A stretch of DNA of 64,000 nt from Sphaerochaeta sp. Lineage in GTDB: Bacteria > Spirochaetota > Spirochaetia > Sphaerochaetales > Sphaerochaetaceae. Numbering within the stretch: the stretch's first letter is position 1; each line of letters starts with the position of its first letter. Positions 29,644 to 52,192 of the stretch are shown one piece after another. The stretch lies in NCBI GenBank assembly GCA_048264225.1, contig JBLXDK010000002.1, positions 9,848 to 73,847 of the forward strand, read 5' to 3'. Both the position numbers and the translations under genes were made by a program. The notes below the pieces were generated by a model, which made no database searches, had not been told where the DNA came from, and worked only from the letters and a program-made list of their open reading frames with translations.

Positions 29644-30444
29644 CTATTGTTTGGTGATCGGTTTGACTTCAGGGTGTCCCTTGTCGTTGAGTTTCCTCTC
29701 TATCAATTTGTCTTTTTCCATCTTGAGAATGAGGTTTCCTATTGTTTTGTAGCTGCTTCGTTCAATGGTGCGGCTTTTGTCCATTTGATGGAACTTGATG
29801 CCTATCAGGCTAACCAGAAGCCAGGTGTCTGGATCTAGGGAGTCAATTACCTTTTTCATGATCGATTCCACTGTCTTGTCATTACGTTTGGTGTTGTTGG
29901 GCTCTGGCTTCTCTTTGTCCTTATCCTTGTCCTTTCCTTTTGTTGTGCTGGGTTTTGTCTCTTCCGGTTTTGGTCGTATCTGAAAGGACTCCATGATGAG
30001 GATCTCATCGCAGCTGTTGTTGAAGATAGGCTTGTCACTGACCGACTCCTTTGTGACGAGAAACACCTCTTTTCCGTACTTTCTCAGTGTTTCCATGATG
30101 ACGGTAAAGTCAGAGTCAGAGGTAATGAATACATAGCGGTCAATGATGGGATTCTGTATTATCAGGGTTTCCATAGCTTCAAGGGAGATGATCAGGTCTG
30201 CCCTGTTCTTATAGTTTGAGGTGATGGAAGGGGTGTCTCGTGTGTAGAAGTTATACTCGGCAAGTGATTTTGACAGCTTCTTGATGGAGGCTGCATTGCC
30301 ACAAGCAAACTTGATGACAAAGAAGTTCTCCTCATCCGGGTTGGTATTGTGCTTGAGCGTCAGTTCATCGAAGAGGCTTTTCAAATCCAAGCCAGTTGGA
30401 ATATTCTCCAAATCAATATAGATGGCATTGTTCTTTCGCTTCAT
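29644..30444 (-). CDS. NYN-domain (LabA-like) protein with a KD-rich linker and an OST-HTH/LOTUS-like C-terminal domain
   Basis: ORF track, 266 aa. The NYN core reads ...AIYIDLENIP...ADLIISLEAM...RYVFITSDSDFTVIMETLRKYGKEVFLV... A low-complexity stretch KGKDKDKDKEKPEP follows. The C-terminal ...DTWLLVSLIGIKFHQMD...YKTIGNLILKM... resembles LOTUS domains. Confidence 0.7.
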   Translation of the reverse strand: MKRKNNAIYIDLENIPTGLDLKSLFDELTLKHNTNPDEENFFVIKFACGNAASIKKLSKSLAEYNFYTRDTPSITSNYKNRADLIISLEAMETLIIQNPIIDRYVFITSDSDFTVIMETLRKYGKEVFLVTKESVSDKPIFNNSCDEILIMESFQIRPKPEETKPSTTKGKDKDKDKEKPEPNNTKRNDKTVESIMKKVIDSLDPDTWLLVSLIGIKFHQMDKSRTIERSSYKTIGNLILKMEKDKLIERKLNDKGHPEVKPITKQ

Positions 30445-30680: not shown

Positions 30681-31982
30681 CTAGAAGGGAGCAGGGGAGG
30701 TAAAGGAAAGGGCTTCTTTGGTGTAAGGATGGCTAAAGGATAGGTAGGAGGCGTGCAGGCAGAGCCTGTCGCCCTCTTTGCCTGTTCCGTAGAGACGGTC
30801 GCCGACAATAGCATGGCCTATGCCTTTGGGATGGGAACTGTGCAGTCTCAGTTGGTGTGTCCTTCCTGTTAGTGGGGTGAAGTGCACCCGAGTGACCAAG
30901 CCCGAAGGTGAGGATTCAACACGGATCTTTTTCCATAAGGTGGTTCCCCATTTCCCCTGTTGTTCATCATATGTTTGGTAGGGTCTATGCTCCACATCGA
31001 GTCGGAAGGGCAGCTTTACCTCTCCTTCTGGCTTTCTGATGACCCCTTCCAGGAGTGCTACATACTCCTTTTTTACCTCTTGTCGCATGAACTGGAGTGA
31101 GAGAAGCTTATGGGTTTCCTTATCCAAGGCAAGGAGCAGCAAGCCCGAGGTGTCCATGTCCAGGCGATGGACAGCACACTGCTTTGGAGCAGAGGTGAAC
31201 AGGCGTCTGACCCGGCTTTCCACACAGTCCTGCTTGTCTTCTCCTCTTCCTGGGACCGAGAGAAGCCCCCCCTCCTTGTTTACCACAAGCAGGGTGGCAT
31301 CACAGTAGACGATATCCAAGGCCAGCATATGCTTGAGAAGTGGTAGGCACTTGTCATCACAAGGGCCGTAGAAGGCCTTGTGCTCTCTACTCAGTGATCT
31401 GTTAGGCTTGCCATAATAGAACTCAAAGATGCTGATAGGGTGTAGGGTATGGGTAAAGGCCCAGTGTAAGAGTTTTGGTGCGCAGCAGTCTCCAGTGCCT
31501 GTAGGGGGTAGCTTTGTCCCAAAGATGTCAGCGAATGTCTTGGTAGTCCCGTCGATGCAGCGAAACTGGTAGAGACTGTAGAGTTGTTGCAACACGACTT
31601 GGGAGAGCTCTTTCCTCTTCTGTACAAGCGAGGGGCGATCAACAGCGTCCCCACCGTTGATCAGATCAGTCATTTCATGCAGTTGAGCATCATGGTTCTT
31701 GACGATCTGCTCATAGGCCCCTGGGTCGGCTACAGGGCCTACCCAACCTGGGATGATCCACGCCCCATCATACTGGCCTGAAAATGCCTTGAGGATAACC
31801 TCGTTACCCGCTTTGTCCTCACAGACAAGGACGCCGAACATCTGACCCCTAGCAGGGCCGAAGAGGTAGTCGGTGGATATGAGCTTCTCCCCTTCAAAGT
31901 CGAGGGCTTTGTGGAAGTCCAGTGCTTCAAGCAGAAGAAATGCGGCCTCTTTGGCCTTGTGGGTAGGTAGCGGTGGATTCAT
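30681..31982 (-). CDS. RluA-family pseudouridine synthase with an N-terminal Cys-containing extra domain of about 230 aa
   Basis: The ORF is 30681..32051. The likely start is the ATG at 31982 (MNPPLPTHKAKE...). The C-terminal catalytic core reads ...LLVVNKEGGLLSVPG...CAVHRLDMDTSGLLLLA...GRTHQLRLH... The N-terminal part carries ...TGTGDCCAPKLL... and ...YGPCDDKCLPLL... Confidence 0.8.
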   Translation of the reverse strand: MNPPLPTHKAKEAAFLLLEALDFHKALDFEGEKLISTDYLFGPARGQMFGVLVCEDKAGNEVILKAFSGQYDGAWIIPGWVGPVADPGAYEQIVKNHDAQLHEMTDLINGGDAVDRPSLVQKRKELSQVVLQQLYSLYQFRCIDGTTKTFADIFGTKLPPTGTGDCCAPKLLHWAFTHTLHPISIFEFYYGKPNRSLSREHKAFYGPCDDKCLPLLKHMLALDIVYCDATLLVVNKEGGLLSVPGRGEDKQDCVESRVRRLFTSAPKQCAVHRLDMDTSGLLLLALDKETHKLLSLQFMRQEVKKEYVALLEGVIRKPEGEVKLPFRLDVEHRPYQTYDEQQGKWGTTLWKKIRVESSPSGLVTRVHFTPLTGRTHQLRLHSSHPKGIGHAIVGDRLYGTGKEGDRLCLHASYLSFSHPYTKEALSFTSPAPF

Positions 31983-32210
31983 AGCTAGTCCAGTATGGGG
32001 TAGATGTATGAGAACTGGGAAGGGTGTTATGCAAAAAGAGGGTAGAAACATTAAGAACCGCCTATTTCCTGAGAGATTTGCTTGTACTTACGGTTTTTAA
32101 TTCAGAGAACTATTTCTTGTAATTCTGGGGAAGAGGTGTATAGTATAGACACTATTAGCGTTATTTTTAGTTTTAGCTTTGTGATCGATAAGTATGGTGC
32201 ATAGGTCGCT

Positions 32211-32361
32211 GTCTTCCCCACGCCAGTGGGGGTGTTTCCATCTTCACCGCATCCATAGCCAGGCTGACAGCGTCTTCCCTATGCTATTGAGAGTGTTTCT
32301 TCCTTGGTATGCGAAATGGAGGAAACGGCTTTTTCTTACCTACTGTAGAGAGGTTTTCAAT
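32211..32361 (+). CRISPR. Vestigial type I-E-like CRISPR array: one intact 29-nt repeat, a 32-nt spacer and two progressively degenerate repeats at 61-nt periodicity
   Basis: R1 (32211..32239) is GTCTTCCCCACGCCAGTGGGGGTGTTTCC. It has the same length, the same GCCA loop and the same 6-bp stem position as the E. coli I-E repeat GAGTTCCCCGCGCCAGCGGGGATAAACCG, with compensatory stem changes (CCCCAC/GTGGGG). The spacer is 32240..32271 (32 nt). R2 (32272..32300) matches R1 at 22 of 29 positions. A third unit (32333..32361) matches at 15 of 29 and shares derived bases with R2. AT-rich leader-like sequence lies upstream. No cas gene is present in the window. Confidence 0.6.
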
Positions 32362-32530
32362 TCTTTTCTTACTTGGAAGGAATTTCTCATATATACCAAA
32401 ATAATCTTCAAAATTCTCATACTTTACTGCAGACGTTTTTACTACTTGATGATACACTTTAGCTAGAAAATGACTAGAGGATCATAATGGTTTTTTGCTT
32501 GAATGAATCACTCTGGTCGAAGAGGTTCCT

Positions 32531-33811
32531 ATGGAACATTTTACTACAAATCAACAAATTACAGTCGAAGATGGTGACCCTCCGCTCATACGCAAAGGCA
32601 TGCAGGCTTGCATGTCACAGAGTGTCCCTGAAACAAGCGACCCCAAACGGTCCAGAGCTAGCTCTGGAAACTCCCGTTGGGGTCGAATCACTAAGTTCAG
32701 AAAGACCCATTTTCCGGACGCGACCAAAGAGATGTGGAACGATTGGCACTGGCAAGTCTCACATCGAATTACCACCCTCGCCCAGATCTCCCGCTTCCTC
32801 ACCCTTACCACTGAAGAGAGCCAAGCTCTCGAACACGCCGAAGAGAGTTTCCCCTTCTCCGTAACCCCCTACTACCTCAGCCTTATCGATCCCTCTGACC
32901 AGACCAGCGCCCTTCGCAAGAGTGTGGTTCCCTCCATCCTTGAGTCCTTCACTTCTCCAGGAGAGAGTGAAGATCCCTTGCATGAAGAAAATACCAGCCC
33001 TGTTCCAGGCATCGTCCATCGATATCCTGACCGTGCACTGTTCCTAACGACCAGCTTCTGCTCAGTCTATTGCAGATACTGCACCCGCTCCCGCCTTGTG
33101 GGAGGTCACACTGAGCCTTTGGAGACTCATTGGAAGAAAGCCATTGAATACATCAGAAACACGCCAGTCATCAGGGATGTAGTCATCTCTGGAGGAGATC
33201 CCTTGACCCTCTCTGATGAGAAGATTGAATGGTTGCTCAAGGAGATAACCTCCATCAAGCATGTGGAGATGGTCAGGATAGGAACCAAAGTCCCTATGGT
33301 GCTTCCCCAGCGGATCACCCCAAATCTTCTCCGAATCCTCAAACGCTACAAACCTATCTACTTGAGTGTGCACTGCACCCACCCTGATGAGATTACAGAA
33401 GAGTCCTCCAAGGCTTGCAACAGCTTAGCTGATGCGGGAGTTGTCATGGGTAGCCAGACTGTGCTTCTGAAGGGGATAAACGATTCGGTTGAGACCCTTA
33501 TGGAGCTGTATCACCGTCTCTTGAAGGTGAGGATCAAACCCTACTACCTCTTTCAGTGTGACCCCATCACAGGCTCTGAACACTTCCGCACAACCGTCGA
33601 CAAGGGTAAGGAGCTCATCAGAGGCCTACGGGGTTTCACCAGTGGGTATGCCGTTCCCCAGTATGTCATAGACACCCCTGGAGGTGGAGGCAAAGTCCCC
33701 ATCCTTCCTGACTATGAAGTGGGACATGATGAGAAGAACCTCTATCTTCGCAACTACGAAGGGAAGGTCTTTGCCTATCCCGACCGTGCCAAAGACGGCA
33801 CAGAGGACTGA
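32531..33811 (+). CDS. kamA: KamA-family radical SAM aminomutase, lysine 2,3-aminomutase-like
   Basis: ORF track, 426 aa. It is strongly KamA-like (...WNDWHWQV...TPYYLSLIDP...DPLHEENTSPVPGIVHRYPDR...). The radical-SAM triad is CSVYCRYC, and the sequence continues ...SGGDPL...LFQCDPITGSEHFRT...YVIDTPGGGGK. The N-terminal 25-50 residues may be over-extended. The Cys-rich C-terminal tail of clostridial KamA is absent. Confidence 0.85.
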   Translation: MEHFTTNQQITVEDGDPPLIRKGMQACMSQSVPETSDPKRSRASSGNSRWGRITKFRKTHFPDATKEMWNDWHWQVSHRITTLAQISRFLTLTTEESQALEHAEESFPFSVTPYYLSLIDPSDQTSALRKSVVPSILESFTSPGESEDPLHEENTSPVPGIVHRYPDRALFLTTSFCSVYCRYCTRSRLVGGHTEPLETHWKKAIEYIRNTPVIRDVVISGGDPLTLSDEKIEWLLKEITSIKHVEMVRIGTKVPMVLPQRITPNLLRILKRYKPIYLSVHCTHPDEITEESSKACNSLADAGVVMGSQTVLLKGINDSVETLMELYHRLLKVRIKPYYLFQCDPITGSEHFRTTVDKGKELIRGLRGFTSGYAVPQYVIDTPGGGGKVPILPDYEVGHDEKNLYLRNYEGKVFAYPDRAKDGTED

Positions 33812-33812
33812 C

Positions 33813-34811
33813 ATGCTTATTGGAATGACCTATGACCTCAAAGACGACTACCTCGCGGCGGGATACCCCCCCGAGGCAGTCGCTGAGTTTGACAGTTTGA
33901 TAACTATCAATGCCATTGATGACTCTCTCAGGCTGCTTGGCTATGAGACGCTCCGTATTGGGAACATCAAGGCCCTGGTAGCCTATCTTGCCCAGGGCAA
34001 TCGATGCGACCTGGTGTTCAACATAGCAGAAGGCTTGCATGGCCTCTGTCGTGAAGCACAGATCCCCGCCCTGCTCGACGCCTATGAGATTCCCTATGTG
34101 TTCTCTGATTCCCACATCCTTGCCCTCACCCTGCACAAGGGGATGACCAAGGCTGTGGTCAGGGAGCAAGGGGTGCCTACTCCTGACTATTATGTGATCC
34201 ATGACGAGCAAGATATTGGGGGGGGCGCACTGCCGTATCCCTTGTTTCTCAAACCCATAGGGGGTGGGACAGGAATGGGTATCAGTGCCAACTCAATTGT
34301 CAGGGACGAGCTTGCCCTTTCCCATGTTGCTAAAATCCTTCTTGCTGAGTTCAAGCAACCAGTTTTGGTGGAGACCTACCTTGAAGGACGGGAGTTTACT
34401 GTCGGGATAACTGGAACCAGAGATCTTGCAAGGACAACAGCTGTAATGGAGATTGTCGTAGATCCTTCCTGTGATCTGGGCGTCTACTCCTACAAGACCA
34501 AGCAGGAGTACCTGGAGTTTGCAAAGTATCATCTTGTTGAGGGTGAGGTGGCCACTGAGTGTGAAAAAGTAGCACTTGCAGCCTGGAATGCCCTCGGTTG
34601 TCGTGACGGCGGACGCATCGATGTGAAGATGGATGGTCAGGGTAGGGTGAACTTTTTGGAAGTGAATCCCCTTGCCGGCTTGAATCCTGTTGATTCAGAC
34701 CTCCCCATCCTCTGTCGGAAGGCAGGGATAGGCTATCACGAACTGATAACCCGGATAATGGATTCTGCCATCCTACGCATCGGGAAGGCTTCGATCAAAT
34801 GCATATCCTGA
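33813..34811 (+). CDS. ATP-grasp ligase, D-alanine--D-alanine ligase (Ddl)-like family (ligase 1)
   Basis: The ORF is 33684..34811. The realistic start is the ATG at 33813, 1 nt after the kamA stop (MLIGMTYDLKDDYLAAGY...). ATP-grasp motifs are ...LFLKPIGGGTGMGI... and ...RIDVKMDGQGRVNFLEVNPLAGL (E-x-N). Confidence 0.8.
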   Translation: MLIGMTYDLKDDYLAAGYPPEAVAEFDSLITINAIDDSLRLLGYETLRIGNIKALVAYLAQGNRCDLVFNIAEGLHGLCREAQIPALLDAYEIPYVFSDSHILALTLHKGMTKAVVREQGVPTPDYYVIHDEQDIGGGALPYPLFLKPIGGGTGMGISANSIVRDELALSHVAKILLAEFKQPVLVETYLEGREFTVGITGTRDLARTTAVMEIVVDPSCDLGVYSYKTKQEYLEFAKYHLVEGEVATECEKVALAAWNALGCRDGGRIDVKMDGQGRVNFLEVNPLAGLNPVDSDLPILCRKAGIGYHELITRIMDSAILRIGKASIKCIS

Positions 34812-35752
34812 TCGTAACGGACAAGCTTTCCAAAAATTCGACGAAAGACGAACTGGATACAGCTCTTGAAGTAAGACAGGTAGCCAAGGCCCTCAAAGCC
34901 CTTGGCCATGACGTATCACGACTGGACTTCTCCTTGAACCTGGAGAGGGTCAAGGAGAAGATCCTCTCTCTCGCCCCTGATAGTATCTTCAACCTTGTGG
35001 AGACCCTGGAAGGTTGCCGCCTTCTCCATCTCGCCCCTGTCCTGTTCGAAACGATGGGGTTCCGATATACAGGGGGAAACAGCCATGGGATGATGAGCTC
35101 TTCGGACAAGCTGTTTTCCAAACGCCTAATGCACAAGGAAGGGCTTCCTACACCCCCTTGGCTTGAAGAGTGTTCCAGTGCCCTTCTCTCTCGATTTTTA
35201 GGCATTCCCCTTATCATCAAGCCAGTGGCTGAGGAGGCATCAGTAGGGATTACCGATGCCTCAGTGCAGACTTTTCATGATGAATCCTCCCTCAAGGAAG
35301 CCCTTGCAGGAAAGTCTCTCTTTGCGGAGATCTTCATACAGGGGCGTGAATTCAGTGTTTCCCTTCTCTCTGTTGATGGGGAGACGATGACCTTTGACCC
35401 TGCTGAGATGCTCTTTATCGATTACCCCAGTGATAAGCCGGCTATCGTTGGGTATGAGGCGAAGTGGGAGGAGTCCTCCTTCGAGTATATTCATACCCAA
35501 CGAACGTTCTCCTTTTCTCCCTCTGATGAGCCCTTGCTTATGACGCTGAAAGAACTGAGCCGCAAAGCATTCCTTCTCTTCGGAGGAAGGGGCTATGCCA
35601 GGGTTGATTTTCGTGTTGACCAGTGGGGTGATCCCTTCATCCTTGAAGTGAACCTCAACCCCTGTATCGCCCAGGATAGCGGCTTTGTCGCAGCGGCCGA
35701 GCGCTCTGGCCTTACCTATGAGCAGATGATCGCCATGATCGTCAAAGGCTGA
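34799..35752 (+). CDS. ATP-grasp ligase, Ddl-like family (ligase 2)
   Basis: ORF track, 317 aa. It overlaps ligase 1 by 13 nt. Motifs are ...LIIKPVAEEASVGI..., ...FIQGREFSV... and ...YARVDFRVDQWGDPFILEVNLNPCI. It is a paralogue of 36708..37685. Confidence 0.8.
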   Translation: MHILIVTDKLSKNSTKDELDTALEVRQVAKALKALGHDVSRLDFSLNLERVKEKILSLAPDSIFNLVETLEGCRLLHLAPVLFETMGFRYTGGNSHGMMSSSDKLFSKRLMHKEGLPTPPWLEECSSALLSRFLGIPLIIKPVAEEASVGITDASVQTFHDESSLKEALAGKSLFAEIFIQGREFSVSLLSVDGETMTFDPAEMLFIDYPSDKPAIVGYEAKWEESSFEYIHTQRTFSFSPSDEPLLMTLKELSRKAFLLFGGRGYARVDFRVDQWGDPFILEVNLNPCIAQDSGFVAAAERSGLTYEQMIAMIVKG

Positions 35753-35756
35753 CCCT

Positions 35757-36239
35757 ATGGAAACCTATACCTTCAGAGAAAAACCTCTCCAGACCGATAT
35801 CCAGAGCATAGCTACAATACTCAATACATCCGGCTTCTTCAACAAAGAGGAGCAGGATGTGGGGGTATCGCTTGTCCGCGAACGCCTTGAGCAAGGGGAA
35901 AGTTGCGAATACTTCTTCCAATTTGCCGAGGTTGAACGATCAGTGCGAGGGTATACCTGCTTCGGCCCCATCCCTGGAACCAAGAGCAGCTTTGACCTCT
36001 ATTGGATAGCGGTCGACACCACCTACCGAGGTCAGGGGCTTGGAACCTTGCTGCTGAGGCAGACTGAACAGGAGATAGAGAGACGTGGAGGGACCAGAAT
36101 CTATATCGAGACCTCATCAAGTGACCTCTATGTGCCTACACGATCTTTTTACGAACGCAACAACTATCATCTGGAGGCAGAACTGAAGGATTACTATGCC
36201 CCCAACGACAACAAGCTCATCTATGTGAAGGCTTGGTAG
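35757..36239 (+). CDS. GNAT-family N-acetyltransferase (GNAT-1)
   Basis: ORF track, 160 aa. The acetyl-CoA site reads ...IAVDTTYRGQGLGTLLLRQTEQEIERRG... It starts 4 nt after ligase 2. Confidence 0.8.
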   Translation: METYTFREKPLQTDIQSIATILNTSGFFNKEEQDVGVSLVRERLEQGESCEYFFQFAEVERSVRGYTCFGPIPGTKSSFDLYWIAVDTTYRGQGLGTLLLRQTEQEIERRGGTRIYIETSSSDLYVPTRSFYERNNYHLEAELKDYYAPNDNKLIYVKAW

Positions 36240-36248
36240 GAAGAGAGC

Positions 36249-36707
36249 ATGTCCACTATTGTTGCTTATCAGCATGACGAGAAAATCTTGGATTTCGAGG
36301 GAGTGACAACCTTAGTCCAAAAACAGATGGCCTTCATAGGCTATAGCCAAAGCAGGGACGAGGTTAGTGCAGAAATTCGAAACTCCATGAAAGATGATAG
36401 CCGGTCAGTCCTGTTTGTCGCCTATGAGGAGGATGGGTCTGCCATGGGGTTTGCCTATGGGAACATCTGCTGTGGCTTGGAGACACGTGGGGACTATTTC
36501 TGGTTGAACGAGCTCTATGTCTCGAAGGAGTGTCGGAAACAGGGGCTTGGTTCAGAGCTGTTGGAGTATGTCCAGACTTGGTCCAAAGCGCAGGGCTGTC
36601 TCTATGTTGCGATGGTCACCCATCCTACAAATGCGAAAGCCCAAGATCTCTATAGGGATATGGACTTTGAGTTGGAATCGTTGGTCTGGGTTGACAAATA
36701 CCTCTGA
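36249..36707 (+). CDS. GNAT-family N-acetyltransferase (GNAT-2)
   Basis: ORF track, 152 aa. The core reads ...LYVSKECRKQGLGSELLEYVQTWSKAQG... It starts 9 nt after GNAT-1. Its stop codon directly abuts the stop of the convergent ligase 3. Confidence 0.8.
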   Translation: MSTIVAYQHDEKILDFEGVTTLVQKQMAFIGYSQSRDEVSAEIRNSMKDDSRSVLFVAYEEDGSAMGFAYGNICCGLETRGDYFWLNELYVSKECRKQGLGSELLEYVQTWSKAQGCLYVAMVTHPTNAKAQDLYRDMDFELESLVWVDKYL

Positions 36708-37685
36708 CTAGCACCCTTGTTCGACAATATCTTGTACCAGATCATCAAAGGAGAAGCCTCCTTCGAGGGCCAGATGATAGAAGCCATAGAAACTGGGGTT
36801 GCAATTCACCTCCAACACCCAGGGCTTTCCCGTCTCGTCAAGTCGGAAGTCTACCCTGGCATATCCGGTAAGAGAGAAGGCGCTCCAACACTTTAGGGCA
36901 ATCTCGGATAGCTTCTCCAGGAGAGGGAGATCTGAAGCATCGGCATGGTACTTTGCCACTATATGTTCATATCCAAATGAGTTTTCAGTCCATTTTGCAT
37001 CATAGGTGATGATCTTCTCCTTCTGATGTTCCTCATACCCTTGGAATACCCATTCATAAGGAGTGAGGACAGTACAGCTCTCACGTGTTCCATACATGCA
37101 GGCGGTAAACTCCCTGCCTTCAATGAAGGCCTCTGCGAAGCAGGGTGTGTGTAAAGCCTCTTCCTTGGCTTCCAATTTCTCAACAACTGTTTCTGAGCTG
37201 ACTATGGAGCTTTCATCAAGGCCTATGGAGGCATCCTCTGATGTGGGTTTGATTATATAGCGCGTGATGGACGTATCTTTTAGGGCATCTGTCTCGTTTT
37301 TGCAGACCCACGGCGGGGTGGCAATCCCAGCTGAGCTGAGAACTCGCTTTGCCAGCATCTTGTTGGTAGTCACAAACAGGTTTTGCAGGGTGCACCCCGT
37401 ATAGGGGAGCCCCAGATGTTCAAGCAAGCCTGGTACCAGATAGGCTAGGTTCTCCTCTCCTGGGGCCGAGTCTACCAGGTTGAATACCAGTTTGGGATTG
37501 TCTTCTTTCGCTGTTGCAATGGCCGAGAGGGCATCAAGGGAAAAGGGAACCAAAAGGGTTTTGTATCCCTTTTCGTGCAGAATTTCCGCAATCCATTTGG
37601 CTTGTCTCTCTATATCGAGGACATCCTCAGGACTGGAGGGAATGATCTGGTTGTGTAGTACGATGATAGTGTGCTTTGTATGCAT
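36708..37685 (-). CDS. ATP-grasp ligase, Ddl-like family (ligase 3)
   Basis: ORF track, 325 aa. Motifs are ...YIIKPTSEDASIGL..., ...FIEGREFTA... and ...YARVDFRLDETGKPWVLEVNCNPSF. It is colinear with ligase 2 by eye. Confidence 0.8.
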   Translation of the reverse strand: MHTKHTIIVLHNQIIPSSPEDVLDIERQAKWIAEILHEKGYKTLLVPFSLDALSAIATAKEDNPKLVFNLVDSAPGEENLAYLVPGLLEHLGLPYTGCTLQNLFVTTNKMLAKRVLSSAGIATPPWVCKNETDALKDTSITRYIIKPTSEDASIGLDESSIVSSETVVEKLEAKEEALHTPCFAEAFIEGREFTACMYGTRESCTVLTPYEWVFQGYEEHQKEKIITYDAKWTENSFGYEHIVAKYHADASDLPLLEKLSEIALKCWSAFSLTGYARVDFRLDETGKPWVLEVNCNPSFYGFYHLALEGGFSFDDLVQDIVEQGC

Positions 37686-37833
37686 GATAACCTTATAGGA
37701 AGGGTGTCTGGATAGCTACATAGTTCGCTTCTAGGGCTGTTTTGTCAACTGGAGCAGAAGGGAAACCAAGAAAGAATAGGTACTTGGTCCAGCTACTCTT
37801 CCTAGTGAGGAGTCTTTTGCCGTATTGGTCTTA

Positions 37834-38895
37834 TCACCGAAGGCTGGAAAGAGATTTCCCCAGATATTCCATGTCATGTTTCCCATAGCGCTGGTCTATC
37901 TGGACACTGGCAATGTGGTCATAGATCCACGCAGCATGAGGCATCTGTTCAGGATGTCTCAGCATAGGGGGCTGTGGCCAATAGACTGTACTTCTGATTC
38001 CCATTGTTTCGAGTTGCTTCTGTACCTGTTCCCTATCATTGCTGTAAAAACAGAAATGACTTGGACAGCTAGCATCATCGAGCGATGGAAAAACGGCCCT
38101 ACACCGATCTGATTGAAGGAGATTGTCCAGTACGGTCTGATAGTTGCTTCTTCTTCTTTCAAACAAGGATTTGGAATTGTAGTGTGTGATGATATCCTCT
38201 GACCTTGCATCACCTTGGAAGACATCAAACATCTTTCGTAGGCTCATCTCTGTCTTCCAGAACACTTCAGATGCTTGTCTGTCATAAGCGTTGTCGCCAG
38301 TATCCAGAGCATCCTGCCTGTACTGCATGGCAATGTAGCGCCCCTTGAGGTGAGCCTCCTCGGATGGGAGCATGGGGAAGGTGAAGGAGCCCTCCCTGCG
38401 GATGGCGATACCTCCTGAGGCTATTCCCATCCACTTGCGTACACTACCCGCATAATAGTCGGCATCGGCAGAGTGTCCATCGAGAGAGAATATGCTGTGC
38501 GTAGTGTCTTGTAGGACTGTCACTCCCTGTTCTTTTGCATAGCGTACAAACCCTTTGTCATAGGAACTGAATCCAAAATAGCCACATAAGCCTAGCACCG
38601 ATACGCCTTGCAGATCATTTTCCTTGAATAGGGGAGTCAGGCCCACCCTGTCCACATCATAGAAGCAGATGTCATACCCAGCCTTCTCATAGCTTGAGAG
38701 GACGGTCTCACAGGTATATGCCGGCACATAGGCTTTGTGCCCTGTATTGGTGGCACGTATCTCCTTGAGGCAAGCATAGAGGGCACAACGGCCGGACATA
38801 TAGTGTCTGGTATCGGTCCCAATGCCTTGGAGAAAGTGTGTTTCCCCTATTGTCTGCGGCTCAAGGGTGAACATGCCACCGATCCTATAGGTCAT
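37834..38895 (-). CDS. DegT/DnrJ/EryC1/StrS-like PLP-dependent enzyme (aminotransferase-fold)
   Basis: ORF track, 353 aa. It has an N-terminal ...SGRCALYACL..., and ...YAGSVRKWMGIASGGIAI resembles the S-x-x-K-x-x-G-x-x-GG Schiff-base lysine motif of the DegT family. This assignment is by motif only. Confidence 0.5.
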   Translation of the reverse strand: MTYRIGGMFTLEPQTIGETHFLQGIGTDTRHYMSGRCALYACLKEIRATNTGHKAYVPAYTCETVLSSYEKAGYDICFYDVDRVGLTPLFKENDLQGVSVLGLCGYFGFSSYDKGFVRYAKEQGVTVLQDTTHSIFSLDGHSADADYYAGSVRKWMGIASGGIAIRREGSFTFPMLPSEEAHLKGRYIAMQYRQDALDTGDNAYDRQASEVFWKTEMSLRKMFDVFQGDARSEDIITHYNSKSLFERRRSNYQTVLDNLLQSDRCRAVFPSLDDASCPSHFCFYSNDREQVQKQLETMGIRSTVYWPQPPMLRHPEQMPHAAWIYDHIASVQIDQRYGKHDMEYLGKSLSSLR

Positions 38896-38896
38896 G

Positions 38897-39973
38897 TCAG
38901 AAACTCCTGATCACCGTTTCATTCAAACTTTGAATGATTTCAACGGCGAGCTTTACACTATTTTGGACATCACTGTAGGAACAAATTCCATAATGGGTAT
39001 GCACATAGCGTACAGGGACTCCAATGACAATTGCAGGAATGCCAGCATTGGAGAGGTGAATAGGTGCCCCATTGGTCGCTCCAGCGCTTCTGACTGCCTC
39101 CTGTACGGGAATACCATGCTTTGTTGCGAGATCCAGGGCGAAGCGTTGGAATCGGGGGTTTGTGATCATCCTGGCATCGATATGCCTAAGCATAGGGCCC
39201 TTCTTTATGCAAGTCTGGGCTTGGTAGGCTGGTACTACCGTGTCATCAGCAGGACAACCCTCAAAGACAATGGCTATATCAGCCTTAATGGTATTGGCGC
39301 TGACAATAGAGCCTCTGGTTCCTACCTCTTCCTGGCTGGAGAAGTCCCCAACAAGGTTGACATCCAAGGGTTTCCCTCTCAGTTCTTCCAAGGTAGCAAG
39401 GACTGATGCACATCCGATTCTACAGTCAAAAGCCTTGCCTATCAGGATGTCATGCTTTTCATCATAGGTACAGTTGACATCAGGTACTACCGGGGCGGCG
39501 ATTCCTACTTTGTAGTGAGTAATAACCTCATCAGCGTCGCTTGCCCCGATGTCGATGACCAGACTGGAAATCTCCAGAGAAGCTTTCTTTTCAGCTTCAC
39601 TCATGAAGTGAGGAGGTTTGCTGGCGACCACGCCGGTAATATACTCGCCCTCCTGGTTCCTGACTCTGACCAGATGGGCCGGGACGTTTGTAGGGATCCA
39701 GCCTCCGATGGTGATGAACTCGAGCATCCCGTCAGGACGGATTGCCTTTACCATGAATCCGACTTCATCTGTATGGGCATTGAGTTGGACGGTACACCGG
39801 CCATCCTTGTTCCCTTCCCGATAGAGATAGAGGTTCCGTATGCTGTCCTCAGCAAACTTGCCCAAACCCTTGCCCTCGTCACGCAAGACTGTGAGAACAT
39901 CGTCCTCAAAGCCACTGATGCCGTTGGCATCACTGATCCTCTTGATATATCCGATTGTACGTTGTGTATTCAT
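38897..39973 (-). CDS. M42-family metallo-aminopeptidase (FrvX/YpdE/PepA-like)
   Basis: ORF track, 358 aa. Motifs are ...LNAHTDEVGFMVKAI..., ...GKAFDCRIGCA... and ...SSQEEVGTRGS... Confidence 0.85.
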   Translation of the reverse strand: MNTQRTIGYIKRISDANGISGFEDDVLTVLRDEGKGLGKFAEDSIRNLYLYREGNKDGRCTVQLNAHTDEVGFMVKAIRPDGMLEFITIGGWIPTNVPAHLVRVRNQEGEYITGVVASKPPHFMSEAEKKASLEISSLVIDIGASDADEVITHYKVGIAAPVVPDVNCTYDEKHDILIGKAFDCRIGCASVLATLEELRGKPLDVNLVGDFSSQEEVGTRGSIVSANTIKADIAIVFEGCPADDTVVPAYQAQTCIKKGPMLRHIDARMITNPRFQRFALDLATKHGIPVQEAVRSAGATNGAPIHLSNAGIPAIVIGVPVRYVHTHYGICSYSDVQNSVKLAVEIIQSLNETVIRSF

Positions 39974-40246
39974 CTACAGCTCTACCTTTTCAAATTCTTC
40001 TATACAAGCGACTACATAAGCCGCCATAGCATTCAGCATCTCAGTTCCCCACTCAACTGTGGTGTATTTGGGATGGTCGGATCCGACTCACCCATTGTCA
40101 GTGACATGGTTGGTCAGTCTGGGTATGGTGATCTCTTTGGGCTTCACGGTATTGAAACCGGATGCTTTGAAGGCTTCACTCACATCTTTCAATTTCGGGG
40201 TGTGGTCAATCTCATTCCTATCGATGAGCTTTGGGTCTAGGGCCAT
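39974..40246 (-). other. 90-codon ORF interrupted by one in-frame TGA (40088..40090): either a nonsense pseudogene or a candidate Sec-recoded gene
   Basis: My own translation from the ATG at 40246 gives MALDPKLIDRNEIDHTPKLKDVSEAFKASGFNTVKPKEITIPRLTNHVTDNG. A TGA follows. The same frame continues VGSDHPKYTTVEWGTEMLNAMAAYVVACIEEFEKVEL and ends in a TAG abutting the M42 ATG (ctgTAGATG). It is not in the ORF track because each half is under 60 aa. Confidence 0.4.
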
Positions 40247-40279
40247 GACAGCAAACTCTCATCCGAACCACTAGGGATT

Positions 40280-40309
40280 GCAAAGAGCCGGAAATTTCCA
40301 GCTCTTTGC
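40280..40309 (-). terminator. Stem-loop downstream of the peptide-binding protein gene (possible partial terminator or RNA-stability element)
   Basis: The 9-bp arms are gcaaagagc / gctctttgc, and inner pairs extend the stem to about 13 bp. It lies 30 nt after the stop at 40339. No clear U-tract follows on the minus strand. Confidence 0.35.
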
Positions 40310-40338
40310 CTGTTTAGCTCTTATGCTAGATAGAAGCC

Positions 40339-41868
40339 TTACTTGGCTACTGTAACCCCTTCAAGCCTATGGTACCCAATAGGATCCAACACAAAGTTCT
40401 TCACCTTATTGCTGGCACCTGCGGTGATGGCTGTATAGATGATGGGAGCGTTGTTGGCTACTTCCTTCAGCTTGATAGCCAAATCCTTGTATGCAGCATC
40501 ACGGACCTTGGTGTCTGCACTGGTACGTCCAAGCATGACAAGACGGTCTACTTCAGGATCAGCAATGAAAGACCTGTTCCCTGGGGCCCCCTGCTGTGAG
40601 CTGTGCTCGAGGGAGTAGTAGGTGTAGTCAGCGTCTTTGGTTGAGGTTACCCAGCCAAAGTATCCCATGTCGTGTTCACCAGCTGTTGAACGGCTGATGA
40701 AGGTACCGAACTCCATGACCTCTACCTTACAGGTGATACCGATTTCTCTGAGCATCTCCTGGATAGCCTGACACATCTCAACCCTGCTCTGGTTGTTGTT
40801 TACCCACAAGGAGCAAGAGAAGCCATTGGGATAGCCTGCTTCAGCAAGAAGTGCCTTGGCTTTTTCTGGGTTGTACTCCCACACACCGGTAGAGTAGTAA
40901 CCATATACTGCGGGGGCGATGATCTCATCGGCAGCAGCACCTGTGCCACTGTTGACAGTGTCGACAAGCAACTGGCGGTCAATAGCCATGTTGATGGCCT
41001 GGCGCACTTTCTGGTTGTCAAAAGGAGCCTTGCGCATGTTGAAGGAGATATAGAAGCAGGTCAAGGAAGGAGCTTCAAAAAGCGTGAGGGCCTTGTTTGC
41101 TGTTACACGCTTCAGATCCGATACCAGGATATCATAGGAGATGTCCAGTTCGCCTGTTTCCAGTGCAATAGTACGTTGGGCCGCCTCAGGAATTACTTTC
41201 ATCACCAGGTATTTTGTCTTTGGAGCACCCTGGAAATAGGCATCGAACGCTTCGAGCTTCACGTTGTCGCTTTGTGCCCAGGATACAAACTTGTAAGGGC
41301 CGCTTCCCACTGGCTTGGTCTTCAAGGCATCAGGATTGGCGCTTACATAGTCTTTCGGGACGATTGCGGCAAAGGGAACTGCAAGGTTACGTAGCGTCGG
41401 ACCATAAGGAGCTTTTGTTGTGACGACTACTGTGTAATCATCCTCAATCTTTACCTCTTTGATGAAGTCGACAATGTACGAGACAGAGGCACTTGCTATG
41501 GAGCGGTCAAGAGAGAACTTGACATCGTCAGCCTTGAGCTCCTCACCGTTATGGAATGTTATGCCTTTGCGAATGAAGAACCTGTAGGAAACGGGGGATA
41601 GCTGTTCCCATCTTTCCGCAATCTGGGGGATGATCTCACCAGTTTTGGGATCAGTGTCCACCAACGTATCGAAAATATGGTTGGTAACAGCTACCGCCGG
41701 GGTCTCTTTTCCCACATGCGGGTCGAAGGAAGTGACATCGGCACCCTGACCAAAGACGATAGTGTCCTTGAAGCCTGTCTCTGCTTGGGATGAGCTTTCC
41801 TTGGCCCCTCCAGCAAACATGATCGTGGTGCAGAGCAATGCGAGAAGTACAGTCAGAACTCTTTTCAT
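40339..41868 (-). CDS. Peptide/nickel ABC transporter substrate-binding protein (family 5, DppA/OppA-like)
   Basis: ORF track, 509 aa. It has a signal peptide with a possible lipobox (...LLALLCTT...) and typical SBP_bac_5 composition (...GQGADVTSFDPH...). Confidence 0.85.
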   Translation of the reverse strand: MKRVLTVLLALLCTTIMFAGGAKESSSQAETGFKDTIVFGQGADVTSFDPHVGKETPAVAVTNHIFDTLVDTDPKTGEIIPQIAERWEQLSPVSYRFFIRKGITFHNGEELKADDVKFSLDRSIASASVSYIVDFIKEVKIEDDYTVVVTTKAPYGPTLRNLAVPFAAIVPKDYVSANPDALKTKPVGSGPYKFVSWAQSDNVKLEAFDAYFQGAPKTKYLVMKVIPEAAQRTIALETGELDISYDILVSDLKRVTANKALTLFEAPSLTCFYISFNMRKAPFDNQKVRQAINMAIDRQLLVDTVNSGTGAAADEIIAPAVYGYYSTGVWEYNPEKAKALLAEAGYPNGFSCSLWVNNNQSRVEMCQAIQEMLREIGITCKVEVMEFGTFISRSTAGEHDMGYFGWVTSTKDADYTYYSLEHSSQQGAPGNRSFIADPEVDRLVMLGRTSADTKVRDAAYKDLAIKLKEVANNAPIIYTAITAGASNKVKNFVLDPIGYHRLEGVTVAK

Positions 41869-41912
41869 TTCTTTCTCCTATTTTCGAAGTCCCTACGGGC
41901 GGGAACAAACGA

Positions 41913-42878
41913 TTACACAAGTGTACAGGCTACAAAATGCCCTTTATTTACTTCCTTGAGAGGGATGTCGCCAGCGAGGCAGGCTTCACTGACGTAAGGA
42001 CAGCGCTTGGCAAAACGACAGCCCGGAAGTGGATCGATTGGGCTGGTCAGTTCGCCTTGCAAGAGTAGGCGGTCAGTTTTGTAGTCGGGATCAGGGACGG
42101 GAATGGCTGATAGCAGGGCTTGGGTGTAGGGATGAAGCGGGTTTGTGAAAAGCTCCTTGGAGGGGGCCTTTTCCACCATCTGCCCAAGGTACATCACCAG
42201 GATGTCGTCTGAAAGGTGCTTGACGACAGAGAGGTCATGGGTGATGAAGAGGTAGGTAAACCCAAACTCATCCTGGAGATCTTGCATCAGGTTGAGGATC
42301 TGTGCTTGGATGGATACATCCAGGGCTGATACCGGCTCGTCACACACCACAAACTTGGGATCGAGGGCGAGAACGCGGGCAATGCCGATGCGCTGTCTCC
42401 TTCCTCCATCAAGTTCATGGGGGTAGCTGTTAATAAGGCGAGGGGAGAGACCCACCAGATCCATCAGCTCAGAAATTCTAGCAAGTAGAGCTGTCTCTTC
42501 CCCGCGCCTGAATATCTTTTGTATCAGCAGACTCTCTCCTATCGTCTCAGCAACAGTCATGCGCGGGTTCAGTGAGGCGAACGGATCCTGAAAAATGATC
42601 TGCATTTCCCGCCTCAAATCTTTCATCTGTTTTTTCCCAAGGTTGGTGATCTCATTGTTTTCAAAGAAAATCTTTCCTTCCGTTGGTTCATGAAGGCGCA
42701 GTATCGTCCTTCCCAAGGTCGATTTCCCACATCCCGATTCACCTACAACACCAAGGGTCTCCCCTTTTCTTATGACAAAGGAGACATCGTCTACGGCATG
42801 CAGGGTGCCTTTGGGGGTGTGGAAGTATTTTTTCAGGTTCTCAACCCTGAGCAATTCCTGTCTCGTGTTTTCAGCCAT
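41913..42878 (-). CDS. Oligo/dipeptide ABC transporter ATP-binding protein (DppF/OppF-like)
   Basis: The ORF is 41913..42926. The likely start is the ATG at 42878 ([19 protein letters not shown]), an 8-nt overlap with the upstream ATPase. Walker A is GESGCGKST, and there is a C-terminal oligopeptide-type extension. Confidence 0.85.
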   Translation of the reverse strand: MAENTRQELLRVENLKKYFHTPKGTLHAVDDVSFVIRKGETLGVVGESGCGKSTLGRTILRLHEPTEGKIFFENNEITNLGKKQMKDLRREMQIIFQDPFASLNPRMTVAETIGESLLIQKIFRRGEETALLARISELMDLVGLSPRLINSYPHELDGGRRQRIGIARVLALDPKFVVCDEPVSALDVSIQAQILNLMQDLQDEFGFTYLFITHDLSVVKHLSDDILVMYLGQMVEKAPSKELFTNPLHPYTQALLSAIPVPDPDYKTDRLLLQGELTSPIDPLPGCRFAKRCPYVSEACLAGDIPLKEVNKGHFVACTLV

Positions 42879-43860: not shown

Positions 43861-43869
43861 TGCGGTCTC

Positions 43870-49070: not shown

Positions 49071-49234
49071 AATACAGAGTACTGTAGTTCAATTGCAGTG
49101 GGTGTGCAAGCGCGGATTCTTTGGTTGTCCACATCAGCAACATGCAGGACAAACGGGCACATCCCTGGCATTGAGGTTTCCCATTATGTATGCAGCATTC
49201 CTGTGCTATACTTACAGGACAAGGAGCACCACAT

Positions 49235-49999: not shown

Positions 50000-50091
50000 G
50001 GAAAAATTGGTGATAAGAAGGATGTGAGATCAGGGTTGAAGGATTTGCGGTCTTGTTTTCCTTGAGGCTATGATCTAATCCTGTTGGGCTA

Positions 50092-52188: not shown

Positions 52189-52192
52189 GCAT

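Follow-up and report, generated by a model that had tools for sequence, protein, structure and literature searches.

Beta-lysine is the dedicated precursor in the AblA/AblB system of methanogens and some bacteria, in which a lysine-type 2,3-aminomutase is encoded beside a GNAT and an N-acetylation step yields N-epsilon-acetyl-beta-lysine. In the osmolyte locus for N-acetylglutaminylglutamine amide (NAGGN; Ngg, AsnO, and an M42 peptidase), a GNAT function is joined to an ATP-grasp peptide-bond former, giving a small N-acetylated peptide. Related ATP-grasp chemistry is performed by Ddl and Van enzymes and by Ddl-like L-amino-acid ligases, which share a three-domain fold, and the acetylation and deacetylation of polyamines are performed by SpeG/SSAT-type GNATs and acetylpolyamine amidohydrolases (APAHs), respectively.

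The locus described here lies in a 64,000-nt stretch of Sphaerochaeta DNA (the window). On balance, we favor the reading that positions 32531-37685 constitute a biosynthetic cassette, complete in itself, for a small, peptide-like amide metabolite containing beta-lysine.

Organization of the locus

On the plus strand, kamA (32531-33811; Pfam LAM_C and Radical_SAM) was followed by lig1 (33813-34811; Dala_Dala_lig_C, E = 1.7e-25), lig2 (34799-35752; Dala_Dala_lig_C, E = 2e-21), GNAT1 (35757-36239; Acetyltransf_1), and GNAT2 (36249-36707; Acetyltransf_1, E = 3.7e-16), and the minus strand carried lig3 (36708-37685; Dala_Dala_lig_C) and a DegT-like gene (37834-38895; fold-level match to DegT/ArnB). 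In the raw sequence, the TGA of kamA ended at 33811 and the ATG of lig1 began at 33813, lig1 and lig2 overlapped by 13 nt, gaps of 4 nt and 9 nt separated lig2 from GNAT1 and GNAT1 from GNAT2, and the stop codons of GNAT2 (36705-36707) and lig3 (36708-36710) abutted. The coordinates and junctions given in the preliminary description were all exact when compared with the ORF list and the raw sequence. The ORF listing contained an upstream alternative start for lig1 (GTG at 33684); the start at 33813 was adopted because 332-aa orthologues spanned 100% of the query.

The 5' leader at 32400-32530 (plus strand) is a probable promoter region of the operon, with a conserved upstream patch reading ..AATCTTCAAAATTCT..ACGTTTT..TGATACACTT..AGAGGATCA.., followed by a GAAGAGG ribosome-binding site and the kamA ATG. 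Invariant columns fell at 32400-32492 in an upstream alignment of the window with loci L004, L005, and L001, and no Rfam family matched the region 32400-32530.

Conservation of the cassette

Of 80 species-level loci, drawn from at least nine phyla, approximately 90% had kamA-lig1-lig2-GNAT1 in colinear order, and the same arrangement was found in independent gene calls bearing Pfam labels. Among the informative loci of other species, 61 of 65 contained kamA, 59 of 65 contained lig1, and 57 of 62 contained GNAT1, counted where it lay downstream of lig2. Since lig1 or kamA was missing in 5 of 53 loci, the cassette is not a rigid unit. GNAT2 and lig3 were confined to Sphaerochaeta-type (spirochaete) loci, 5 of 62 in the synteny count, and GNAT2 was borne only by loci L001, L004, L005, L007, L008, and L009; lig3 lay directly convergent after GNAT2 in all six Sphaerochaeta-type loci, with an upstream neighbor that varied by genome. 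The gene set thus recurred across phyla, a check that the preliminary description had proposed, and its unit of "three ligases and two GNATs" gave way to a conserved unit of kamA-lig1-lig2-GNAT1.

Gene fusions were also found: at least 13 representative clusters joined lig1 and lig2, and lig2 was joined to GNAT1 in at least 16, as well as in L088 (independently called genes). As judged from sequence, these Rosetta-stone fusions tie the steps of the cassette together.

Among the 124 nearest flanking genes, no Pfam family was represented by more than 3, and a search for a recurrent BLAST cluster in the flanks found none; the cassette therefore appears autonomous. No transporter, regulator, or resistance gene traveled consistently with the cassette among those 124 genes. 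Translation-related neighbors (S21, TGT, and a MiaB/RimO-like gene) were seen in occasional loci. According to record titles, the carriers were freshwater, groundwater, soil, and digester MAGs along with marine ones, and with habitats so mixed, an osmolyte role is without habitat support. No characterized member of the cassette was found in the published literature, in agreement with the preliminary description, and the best reading of a four-gene core present in at least nine bacterial phyla without a published function is that of an uncharacterized pathway.

KamA

KamA aligned with the lysine 2,3-aminomutase of C. subterminale (PDB 2A5H) at 446 bits, with Asp at D293 and D330 and the lysine of its GGGGK motif at K337, and it carried the motif CSVYCRYC. 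The equivalents of CxxxCxxC, R134, D293, D330, and K337, residues that serve the SAM cluster, the PLP lysine, the alpha-carboxylate, and the epsilon-ammonium group, were kept in 61 of 62 cassette KamAs. The protein passed the NCBIfam model of the KamA family (349.9 bits, cut-off 199.2) and failed those of AblA (460.6 bits, cut-off 525.4) and EpmB (270 bits, cut-off 369). The position of C268 was never Cys in cassette KamAs, the clostridial zinc-site cysteines were missing from the subfamily, and only a short tail followed the PLP lysine. KamA is thus a predicted radical-SAM, PLP-dependent lysine 2,3-aminomutase belonging to a subfamily specific to the cassette and short at the C-terminus. Because the lysine-binding and catalytic residues were all kept, beta-lysine is the likely precursor, as had been proposed from the two Asp positions. 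Neither fermentation genes nor epmA/efp lay nearby, also as described.

ATP-grasp ligases

The three ligases carried the motifs FLEVNPL, ILEVNLN, and VLEVNCN. Every Ddl NCBIfam cut-off was missed, the best model giving 140.5 bits for lig1 and 111.6 bits for lig2 against a cut-off of 243. Across 52 members of the lig1 family, the equivalents of K97, K144, E180, E187, K215, R255, D257, E270, and N272 were invariant, and the substrate positions differed from those of Ddl (E for H63, R for E68, E/Q/K for Y216, and D for L282). The catalytic residues of lig2 were likewise invariant; A, W, and C replaced S150, Y216, and G276, respectively, and R235, R272, and D293 were additional invariant residues, so that the nucleophile pocket gained an invariant acidic residue in each enzyme (L282 to D in lig1, D293 in lig2). 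The AF2 model of lig2 had a pLDDT of 88.5, and its closest solved fold was Ddl (TM ~0.75, 24% identity); at E <= 1e-30, its homologues fell into 870 clusters of 50% identity. Lig3 proved to be a paralogue of lig2, as suggested earlier (32% identity, E = 5e-55). Lig1 retained 56-60% identity between phyla. In public annotation, the ligases are named D-alanine--D-alanine ligase.

Lig1 and lig2 are therefore predicted to be the first and second members, respectively, of a conserved pair of Ddl-derived ATP-grasp amide ligases. With the ATP-grasp catalytic residues kept and the D-Ala specificity residues of Ddl replaced, the three ligases appear competent for catalysis, as the preliminary description had it, and are distinct from ordinary Ddl.

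Acetyltransferases and the amidohydrolase fusion

GNAT1 matched PDB 2R7H over its full length (123 bits, E = 7e-35), followed by RimI and Naa30, and is predicted to be the conserved acyl-CoA N-acyltransferase of the cassette, with RimI-like proteins as its nearest characterized relatives; its acyl donor could be other than acetyl-CoA. GNAT2 matched the NCBIfam model for AAC(6') group E at E = 1e-12, under the cut-off, and its best PDB matches were the DpA polyamine acetyltransferase 8A9O (E = 7e-6), AAC(6'), SSAT2, and nourseothricin acetyltransferase; it appears to be a second acetyltransferase with a weak likeness to polyamine and aminoglycoside acetyltransferases. Neither GNAT matched AblB (15.8 bits, cut-off 205). 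Together with the AblA score and missing zinc-site cysteines of KamA, this result spoke against the "abl-type core" that had been postulated.

In approximately 30% of loci, a GNAT-APAH fusion took the place of GNAT2 and lig3, and GNAT-APAH-GNAT1 consisted of ORFs continuing in frame. The deacetylase domain was nearest to APAHs (248 bits for 9GKZ, 217 bits for 3Q9B) and reached approximately 110 bits against the AcuC and HDAH types; no APAH domain was present in the 64-kb window. The fusion suggests that an alkylamine is reversibly acetylated.

Proposed pathway

Beyond the enzyme classes, we infer the pathway chemistry throughout. KamA would convert L-lysine to beta-lysine, as its conserved residues suggest, and lig1 and lig2 would each form one amide bond through an acyl-phosphate, a chemistry indicated by their fold. 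They may join beta-lysine to one or two of the common amino acids, or to additional beta-lysine. GNAT1 would then N-acylate, and probably acetylate, an amino group left free on the product. In Sphaerochaeta-type genomes, a third amide bond may be formed by lig3 and a second acetyl group added by GNAT2; in the approximately 30% of other lineages with the GNAT-APAH fusion, that place would be taken by reversible alkylamine acetylation. The acetylated alkylamine would most simply be the epsilon-amino group of the beta-lysine unit, and its acetylation could act as a protecting group or charge switch.

The product is thus best read as a metabolite resembling an N-acetylated di- or tripeptide that contains beta-lysine. 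The lack of any accompanying transporter, regulator, or resistance gene makes it most likely that this metabolite stays inside the cell, as a compatible solute or as a cation buffer in the manner of polyamines.

Alternative explanations

The product might instead be a secreted cationic bioactive, for example a short oligomer of beta-lysine resembling the side chain of streptothricin, with acetylation for self-protection and the amidohydrolase unmasking the compound. The weak likeness of GNAT2 to aminoglycoside, streptothricin, and nourseothricin acetyltransferases is consistent with this, the pairing of acetyltransferase and deacetylase genes suits prodrug logic, and a MatE efflux gene adjoined the cassette in L005 and L006 (MatE, 3 of the 124 flanking genes). 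However, exporter, immunity, and regulator genes were not consistently linked, PADLOC gave no match, and identities of 55-60% across phyla for both lig1 and kamA point to a physiological function rather than a specialized antibiotic cluster, making a secreted bioactive unlikely.

In E. coli, EF-P modification uses beta-lysine, and the acceptor of the cassette ligases could be a protein instead of a small molecule: beta-lysine or a peptide of it would be placed on EF-P or on a ribosomal or carrier protein in the manner of RimK, LysX, or EpmA, and the same protein would be the substrate of the GNAT and deacetylase. We regard this as quite unlikely, as no efp, epmA, or carrier-protein gene occurred in any locus (a systematic search for ORFs of at least 90 aa), no neighbor exceeded 3 of 124 flanking genes, KamA scored lower on EpmB (270 bits) than on AblA (460 bits), the ligases were nearest to small-molecule Ddl by sequence and fold, and the deacetylase domain was of the small-molecule APAH type. 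Such a role would fit the RimI and Naa N-terminal protein acetyltransferases being the nearest characterized relatives of GNAT1, the weak matches of lig2 and lig3 to RimK, LysX, and TTL, and the occasional translation-related neighbors.

Ddl is the family nearest to the ligases by sequence and fold, the public annotation names them as such, and Sphaerochaeta reportedly has an atypical cell wall, so the ligases might be Ddl or a variant building an unusual peptidoglycan stem or cross-bridge with beta-lysine. This is very improbable given Ddl scores of 112-141 bits (cut-off 243), altered Ddl positions E15, S150, and Y216, a patchy phylum distribution, and ligase genes always linked to kamA and GNAT and never beside mur or fts genes; the cell walls of cassette-bearing phyla are not known to be other than conventional.

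The DegT-like protein had no Pfam or NCBIfam match at E <= 0.01; its label in the preliminary description survived at the level of the DegT/ArnB fold, and its proposed place in the pathway did not. The gene started 1 nt after the stop of an M42 peptidase gene, to which it was translationally coupled, and was the last in an oppBCDF-SBP-(creatininase)-M42-X operon conserved in Sphaerochaetaceae genomes. Both genes were rejected as pathway members and assigned to this peptide-uptake operon. That the DegT-like gene completes a seven-gene unit, with the M42 peptidase active in the same pathway, is scarcely credible, although the gene ends 148 nt short of where lig3 starts, on the strand of lig3, and the NAGGN locus includes an M42 peptidase (TIGR03106). 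In S. pleomorpha, 2.4 Mb separated the opp operon from the cassette, in the Spiro_02 assembly the two lay on separate contigs, tblastn found no homologue of either protein in the other 83 cassette loci, and the M42 protein scored 26 bits on the NAGGN model (cut-off 398).

Comparison with known systems

The favored beta-lysine amide pathway resembles AblA/AblB in its lysine-type 2,3-aminomutase beside a GNAT, with beta-lysine as dedicated precursor and an N-acetylation step. It differs in that the GNATs are not AblB homologues, KamA scores under the cut-off for AblA and is truncated at its C-terminus, and two to three obligatory ATP-grasp ligases are present, whereas abl has none. With NAGGN, it shares a GNAT and an ATP-grasp peptide-bond former predicted to give a small N-acetylated peptide. 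However, Ngg is a single bifunctional protein of 547 aa (GNAT2 scored 19.7 bits, cut-off 569), the cassette is without an AsnO-type amidotransferase, and the M42 adjacent in the window is an opp-operon member not of NAGGN type.

The cassette ligases have the three-domain ATP-grasp fold of Ddl, Van, and the L-amino-acid ligases (TM ~0.75), and the phosphate, Mg2+, and transition-state residues of Ddl are all conserved. In contrast, identity is 24-28%, scores fall under every Ddl or Van cut-off, the positions that set Ddl specificity carry other residues (W, E, or Q at Y216; A or T at S150; D at L282; C at G276), and the partners are kamA and GNAT rather than mur genes. For GNAT1, the full-length homologue 2R7H is a structural-genomics entry offering a structure and a putative name alone ("putative D-alanine N-acetyltransferase of GNAT family"). 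The fusion of a GNAT to an APAH-type deacetylase and the weak likeness of GNAT2 to polyamine acetyltransferases recall SpeG/SSAT-type GNATs and APAH; unlike in the polyamine system, the pair is fused and lies inside a biosynthetic operon, and its substrate is presumably a beta-lysine-derived amine rather than putrescine or spermidine.

Organization and conservation of the kamA cassette

On the plus strand, kamA (32531-33811) was followed by three further genes of the cassette core: lig1 (33813-34811), whose ATG lay one base past the kamA TGA; lig2 (34799-35752), which overlapped lig1 by 13 nt; and GNAT1 (35757-36239), after a 4-nt gap. GNAT2 (36249-36707) began 9 nt after GNAT1, and the third ligase gene, lig3 (36708-37685), was convergent, with its stop codon abutting that of GNAT2. 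The ORF list and raw junction sequences agreed throughout with the coordinates and junctions in the preliminary description, and Pfam and NCBIfam bore out its domain assignments for kamA, the Ddl-like ATP-grasp ligases and the GNATs. The best homologues pointed to a Sphaerochaeta species as the organism.

An alignment of lig2 homologues was used to scan one genome per GTDB species, yielding at least 587 confirmed matches, and the best 80 of these loci were taken for comparison. They belonged to Spirochaetota, Planctomycetota, Desulfobacterota/Syntrophia, Bacteroidota, Fibrobacterota, Calditrichota, Marinimicrobia, Krumholzibacteriia and Myxococcota. When the window proteins were run against these loci by tblastn, kamA was found in 61 of the 65 loci having enough upstream DNA, lig1 lay directly upstream of lig2 in 59 of the 65, and GNAT1 was present in 57 of the 62 having enough downstream DNA. 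The same order was repeated in S. pleomorpha Grapes (CP003155, 0.99-1.01 Mb), a Lentisphaeria MAG and a Margulisiibacteriota MAG, according to independent gene calls and Pfam labels. Neighborhood conservation, which the preliminary description had proposed to check, thus held across phyla among the best 80 loci for kamA, the ligases and the GNAT. The larger multi-gene unit drawn there stood in part: its kamA/ligase/GNAT core recurs, but GNAT2 with convergent lig3 occurred in only six Sphaerochaeta-type loci among those compared, and a DegT-like gene falls outside the unit.

Neither all-against-all clustering of ORFs from 83 loci nor a tally of Pfam families over the 124 genes nearest the cassettes gave a recurrent neighbor; the nearest flanks differed throughout, and no BLAST cluster or Pfam family was present in more than 3 of the 124 genes. 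The synteny counts and the different flanks everywhere indicated that kamA-lig1-lig2-GNAT1 is a conserved, mobile unit, and its autonomy is strongly supported. The window carries a lineage-specific six-gene version of this unit. Minority architectures were also seen despite ample flanking DNA, with lig2-GNAT1 alone in three loci (L030, L034, L039) and kamA-lig2-GNAT1 without lig1 in two (L043, L080). Such loci suggested that the tightest pairing is that of lig2 with GNAT1 and that the cassette can undergo splitting or reduction.

A conserved non-coding patch was located 40-130 nt 5' of kamA (32400-32492; TGATACACTT ... AGAGGATCA) and was common to the cassette loci L004 and L005 and, in part, L001. 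It could be a promoter, operator or leader element; it had no Rfam match. A riboswitch or other RNA leader before kamA was rejected, as 31900-32700 gave only a chance-level Rfam match. Across the whole 64-kb window, Rfam at gathering scores returned no riboswitch, known small RNA, tRNA or rRNA. A promoter and terminator scan gave counts no better than those of shuffled sequence.

A lysine-type aminomutase

KamA aligned with the C. subterminale lysine 2,3-aminomutase (PDB 2A5H) at 446 bits, placing Asp residues on D293 and D330 and the lysine of GGGGK on K337. The CSVYCRYC motif and the two Asp residues noted in the preliminary description were present in this alignment, and the CxxxCxxC cysteines, R134, D293, D330 and K337 were kept in 61 of 62 cassette KamAs. 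In lysine 2,3-aminomutase, R134 binds the alpha-carboxylate, Asp293 and Asp330 bind the epsilon-ammonium group, and Lys337 binds PLP. Because these lysine-binding residues were conserved, conversion of lysine to beta-lysine is a well-supported first step, and the assignment of KamA as a lysine-type aminomutase is strongly supported.

The protein exceeded the cut-off of the KamA family model (TIGR00238; 349.9 vs 199.2 bits) and fell under the AblA-, glutamate-, arginine- and EpmB-specific NCBIfam cut-offs. The clostridial enzyme has an inter-subunit zinc site formed by Cys268 and a C-terminal Cys cluster. In no cassette KamA was the C268 position Cys (it was D, N or S); beyond the PLP lysine the tail had a median of 37 aa without a Cys motif, and Pfam LAM_C was matched only at positions 1-56 of 127. 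The missing Cys268 equivalent and Cys-rich tail explain the sub-threshold AblA score (460.6 vs 525.4 bits). The window KamA and its 61 orthologues also had an N-terminal extension of approximately 50-60 aa relative to 2A5H; together with the loss of Cys268 and the Cys tail, this indicated that oligomeric state and stereochemistry may differ from those of the clostridial enzyme.

ATP-grasp ligases distinct from Ddl

Lig2 and lig3 were paralogues (32% identity, E = 5e-55), as previously described, and lig1 was more distant (24-27% identity). The nearest relatives of the ligases by sequence and fold were Ddl, at only 24-28% identity and 60-77 bits, and no PDB structural relative of lig2 nearer than Ddl was found. 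All three were far under every Ddl and Van model cut-off in NCBIfam, the best Ddl model giving lig1, lig2 and lig3 140.5, 111.6 and 119 bits, respectively, against a cut-off of 243. Equivalents of K97, K144, E180, E187, K215, R255, D257, E270 and N272 were invariant in 52 lig1 and 56 lig2 members, the sole exception being Asp for E270 in one lig2 member, and lig3 of the window kept K215, R255, D257, E270 and N272. The E-x-N motifs were present in all three ligases, and these conserved ATP-grasp residues upheld their predicted catalytic competence.

The ligases failed the test for Ddl specificity residues (E15, S150, Y216, L282), with S150 replaced by T or A. At D-Ala-binding positions, lig1 carried E in place of H63, R in place of E68, E/Q/K in place of Y216 and D in place of L282; lig2 carried A for S150, W for Y216 and C for G276, along with new invariant R235, R272 and D293. 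With catalytic residues invariant and D-Ala positions replaced, the ligases are predicted to be active amide ligases with a specificity other than that of Ddl. That the cassette encodes two or three competent ATP-grasp amide ligases distinct from Ddl is strongly supported. By alignment, the acidic residues newly present close to the nucleophile site would be compatible with a diamino-acid substrate. Lig1 was 56-60% identical across phyla and, where sources gave it any name, was called D-alanine--D-alanine ligase or ATP-grasp domain protein.

Acetyltransferases and natural fusions

GNAT1 had a full-length PDB homologue of unknown function (2R7H, E = 7e-35) and otherwise resembled RimI/Naa-type N-terminal acetyltransferases, while GNAT2 was weakly like polyamine, aminoglycoside and nourseothricin acetyltransferases. 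The AblB model (TIGR03827) scored 15.8 bits on GNAT1 against a cut-off of 205, and AblB was not present among the 25 best NCBIfam hits of GNAT2. The presence of one or two acyl-CoA N-acyltransferases in the cassette is strongly supported.

In 19 of 62 loci (about 30%), a gene of approximately 600 aa joined an N-terminal GNAT to a C-terminal deacetylase (for example, L011 8990-10786 and L078 9072-10829, with 17 further loci), sitting between lig2 and GNAT1 in all carriers except L028. The deacetylase was nearest to acetylpolyamine amidohydrolases (APAH; 248 and 217 bits), with about double the scores of AcuC and HDAH types, and no NCBIfam model covered the GNAT-APAH fusion. As to whether GNAT2 is a remnant of the fusion's N-terminal GNAT, hhalign matched the two at E = 7e-9, but GNAT1 matched GNAT2 equally well (4e-9). 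In four loci (L046, L063, L076, L083), the GNAT-APAH ORF ran in frame into GNAT1.

Among 1.84 billion representative proteins searched (E <= 1e-30), lig2-type sequences formed 870 clusters at 50% identity. The best hits included natural fusions, at least 13 of lig1 with lig2 (~640-730 aa) and at least 16 of lig2 with GNAT1 (~480-545 aa), spanning library entries P0227-P0348. A further lig2-GNAT1 fusion, at L088 7670-9112, was confirmed by Pfam in independently called genes. Tight genetic and physical coupling of the cassette proteins is strongly supported. An exact-sequence database look-up returned no record for lig2 or for the library protein P0488.

Proposed pathway and alternatives

We infer an outline in which KamA supplies beta-lysine and lig1, lig2 and, in this genome, lig3 would form one amide bond each, joining beta-lysine with common amino acids or with more beta-lysine. 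GNAT1 would cap an amino group. Here GNAT2 may install a second, polyamine-type acetylation on an alkylamine, probably the epsilon-amino group; elsewhere the GNAT-APAH fusion would both install and remove that acetyl group. A reversible acetyl group could protect the amine while ligation proceeds, or could switch its charge. On balance we consider this biochemical outline probable as a whole, by a narrow judgment, and any specific physiological role of the product much less so.

The lack of a linked exporter, immunity gene or regulator, together with high conservation across phyla, favored an intracellular metabolite, and a compatible solute or polyamine-like compound is our favored product. 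Record titles placed the source habitats in fen, lake, groundwater and reactor as well as marine settings, a mixture that gave no specific support to the osmolyte idea. Tentatively, the cassette might make a beta-lysine oligoamide of a class not yet described, a polyamine surrogate or osmoprotectant of anaerobes in many phyla, with its charge toggled by dedicated acetylation. The charge switch would then be the GNAT-APAH fusion in most lineages and the two GNATs plus lig3 in Sphaerochaeta-type genomes.

A secreted cationic antibiotic, with acetylation as self-protection, is unlikely. A MatE efflux gene adjoined the cassette in two spirochaete loci (L005 11077-12573 and L006 6371-7813), and EamA and MscS genes flanked it in a few further loci. 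MatE, EamA, MscS, TGT and MiaB-like genes beside cassettes were sporadic, and the MatE, EamA and MscS neighbors were too sporadic to provide evidence for export. A PADLOC search for anti-phage defense returned nothing for any cassette protein or the GNAT-APAH fusion. Modification of proteins with beta-lysine, of the RimK, LysX or EpmA kind, is less probable still. KamA scored 270.2 bits on the EpmB model, below the cut-off of 369.3, and the flanks of the related loci held no recurrent neighbor of any kind, EpmA and efp genes included. The kinship of the ligases with Ddl points toward a cell-wall role and their replaced D-Ala positions point away from it; we hold such a role to be very improbable.

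The DegT-like gene and other features of the window

ORF 37834-38895 (minus strand) had been placed in the pathway as a DegT-like PLP enzyme. The label was right as a description of fold: an AF2 model (pLDDT 94.3) had a fold-type-I sugar-aminotransferase fold, with ArnB, Spr1654, AtmS13 and QdtB as top Foldseek hits (E ~1e-13, TM 0.6-0.67), and D130, H133, S151 and K154, to which PLP-binding roles may be assigned by analogy, were invariant in 33 homologues. As a family assignment it did not hold, since the ORF had no significant Pfam or NCBIfam hit, PF01041 giving 14 bits (E = 0.029) against a gathering cut-off of 19.8; some homologues carry a precomputed PF01041 match.

The gene belongs to a conserved peptide-uptake operon running on the minus strand from ~44.8 kb down to 37.8 kb (37834-44763). 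Besides the oppB/C permeases and two ATPases, this operon encodes a family-5 binding protein (40339-41868), the M42 peptidase (38897-39973) and, last, the uncharacterized DegT-fold protein. Its start lay one base past the M42 stop, and in S. pleomorpha and the Spiro_02 assembly it ended the arrangement oppBCDF-SBP-creatininase-M42-X. This operon and the kamA cassette were 2.4 Mb apart in S. pleomorpha and on separate contigs in Spiro_02, and tblastn found no homologue of the DegT-like protein or of M42 in any other cassette locus. The gene was therefore a bystander, and the seven-gene unit of the preliminary description is scarcely tenable, while its core idea stands for the unit redefined without this gene. 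Between the binding protein and M42, S. pleomorpha and Spiro_02 had a creatininase-family gene and the window a 365-nt gap (39974-40338). It is puzzling that an enzyme with a sugar-aminotransferase fold closes an operon of peptide-import and peptidase genes.

Besides the opp operon, the neighbors of the cassette in the window were an RluA-family gene, an NYN-domain gene and a GGDEF gene. The RluA-family pseudouridine synthase (30681-32051, minus strand) was divergent from kamA and matched Pfam at residues 254-407 only, with an N-terminal extension of ~240 aa that had no Pfam match. In the NYN-domain protein (29644-30444, minus strand) the linker was rich in Lys, Asp and Glu and the C-terminal domain was unassigned, and the translation of an adjacent multi-pass membrane protein (27940-29625, minus strand) ended in a GGDEF motif (RIGGDEF). 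Low-GC patches at 10001-12000 (41.6%) and 50001-52000 (38.6%), against ~50% elsewhere, are possibly acquired DNA. Translations beside the second patch read as a protein with a Fic-like motif, HPFADGSGRVGR (49190-49999), and a multi-pass membrane protein (50092-50967); apparent NfeD and stomatin-like genes were read at 51757-53224.

Implications and comparison with known systems

If the proposal is true, a small metabolite of wide occurrence has so far been overlooked, with the lig2 family by itself accounting for at least 587 matches and 870 clusters at 50% identity, and annotation systematically mislabels cassette genes as cell-wall D-Ala-D-Ala ligases. Should the oligoamide be the product, which is possible though doubtful, thousands of genes named D-Ala-D-Ala ligase would encode beta-lysine peptide synthetases. 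The identity of the product would add a third bacterial fate of beta-lysine, alongside its fermentation and its use for N-epsilon-acetyl-beta-lysine or EF-P modification, and would define new substrate specificities of Ddl-type ATP-grasp ligases, enzymes useful as biocatalysts for beta-amino-acid peptides. It would also explain the conserved GNAT-acetylpolyamine-amidohydrolase fusion and correct the annotation and metabolic models of many anaerobes of digesters, sediments and groundwater.

Lysine fermentation genes (kamDE, kdd, kce, kal), for a B12-dependent 5,6-aminomutase and the catabolic steps after it, were neither next to kamA nor among the flanking-gene Pfam counts, and the window neighbors and these counts agreed with the earlier statement that neither fermentation genes nor epmA/efp are nearby. 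The literature check suggested earlier, for a characterized member, found none: full-text searches, with little reach into subscription journals, turned up no account of a kamA-ATP-grasp cassette but only ordinary ablA/ablB or unrelated topics, so a published characterization may exist. The cassette is real, widespread and apparently uncharacterized, and it is built from known enzyme families.

Cassette KamA was without the Cys268-type zinc site and full LAM_C domain of clostridial lysine 2,3-aminomutase, and the ligases kept the ATP-grasp catalytic residues of Ddl but failed its score cut-off and D-Ala specificity residues. With the abl pathway, the cassette shared the logic of aminomutase and GNAT, yet it failed both the AblA test (460.6 < 525.4) and the AblB test, having no AblB-type GNAT. 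GNAT2 scored 19.7 bits against 569 on the model of the bifunctional NAGGN enzyme Ngg (TIGR03103), the window M42 scored 26 bits against 397.75 on the NAGGN M42 model (TIGR03106), and the locus in the window had no amidotransferase such as AsnO; what the cassette did share with NAGGN/NAAG synthesis was the logic by which a GNAT and an ATP-grasp enzyme together give an N-acetyl peptide.
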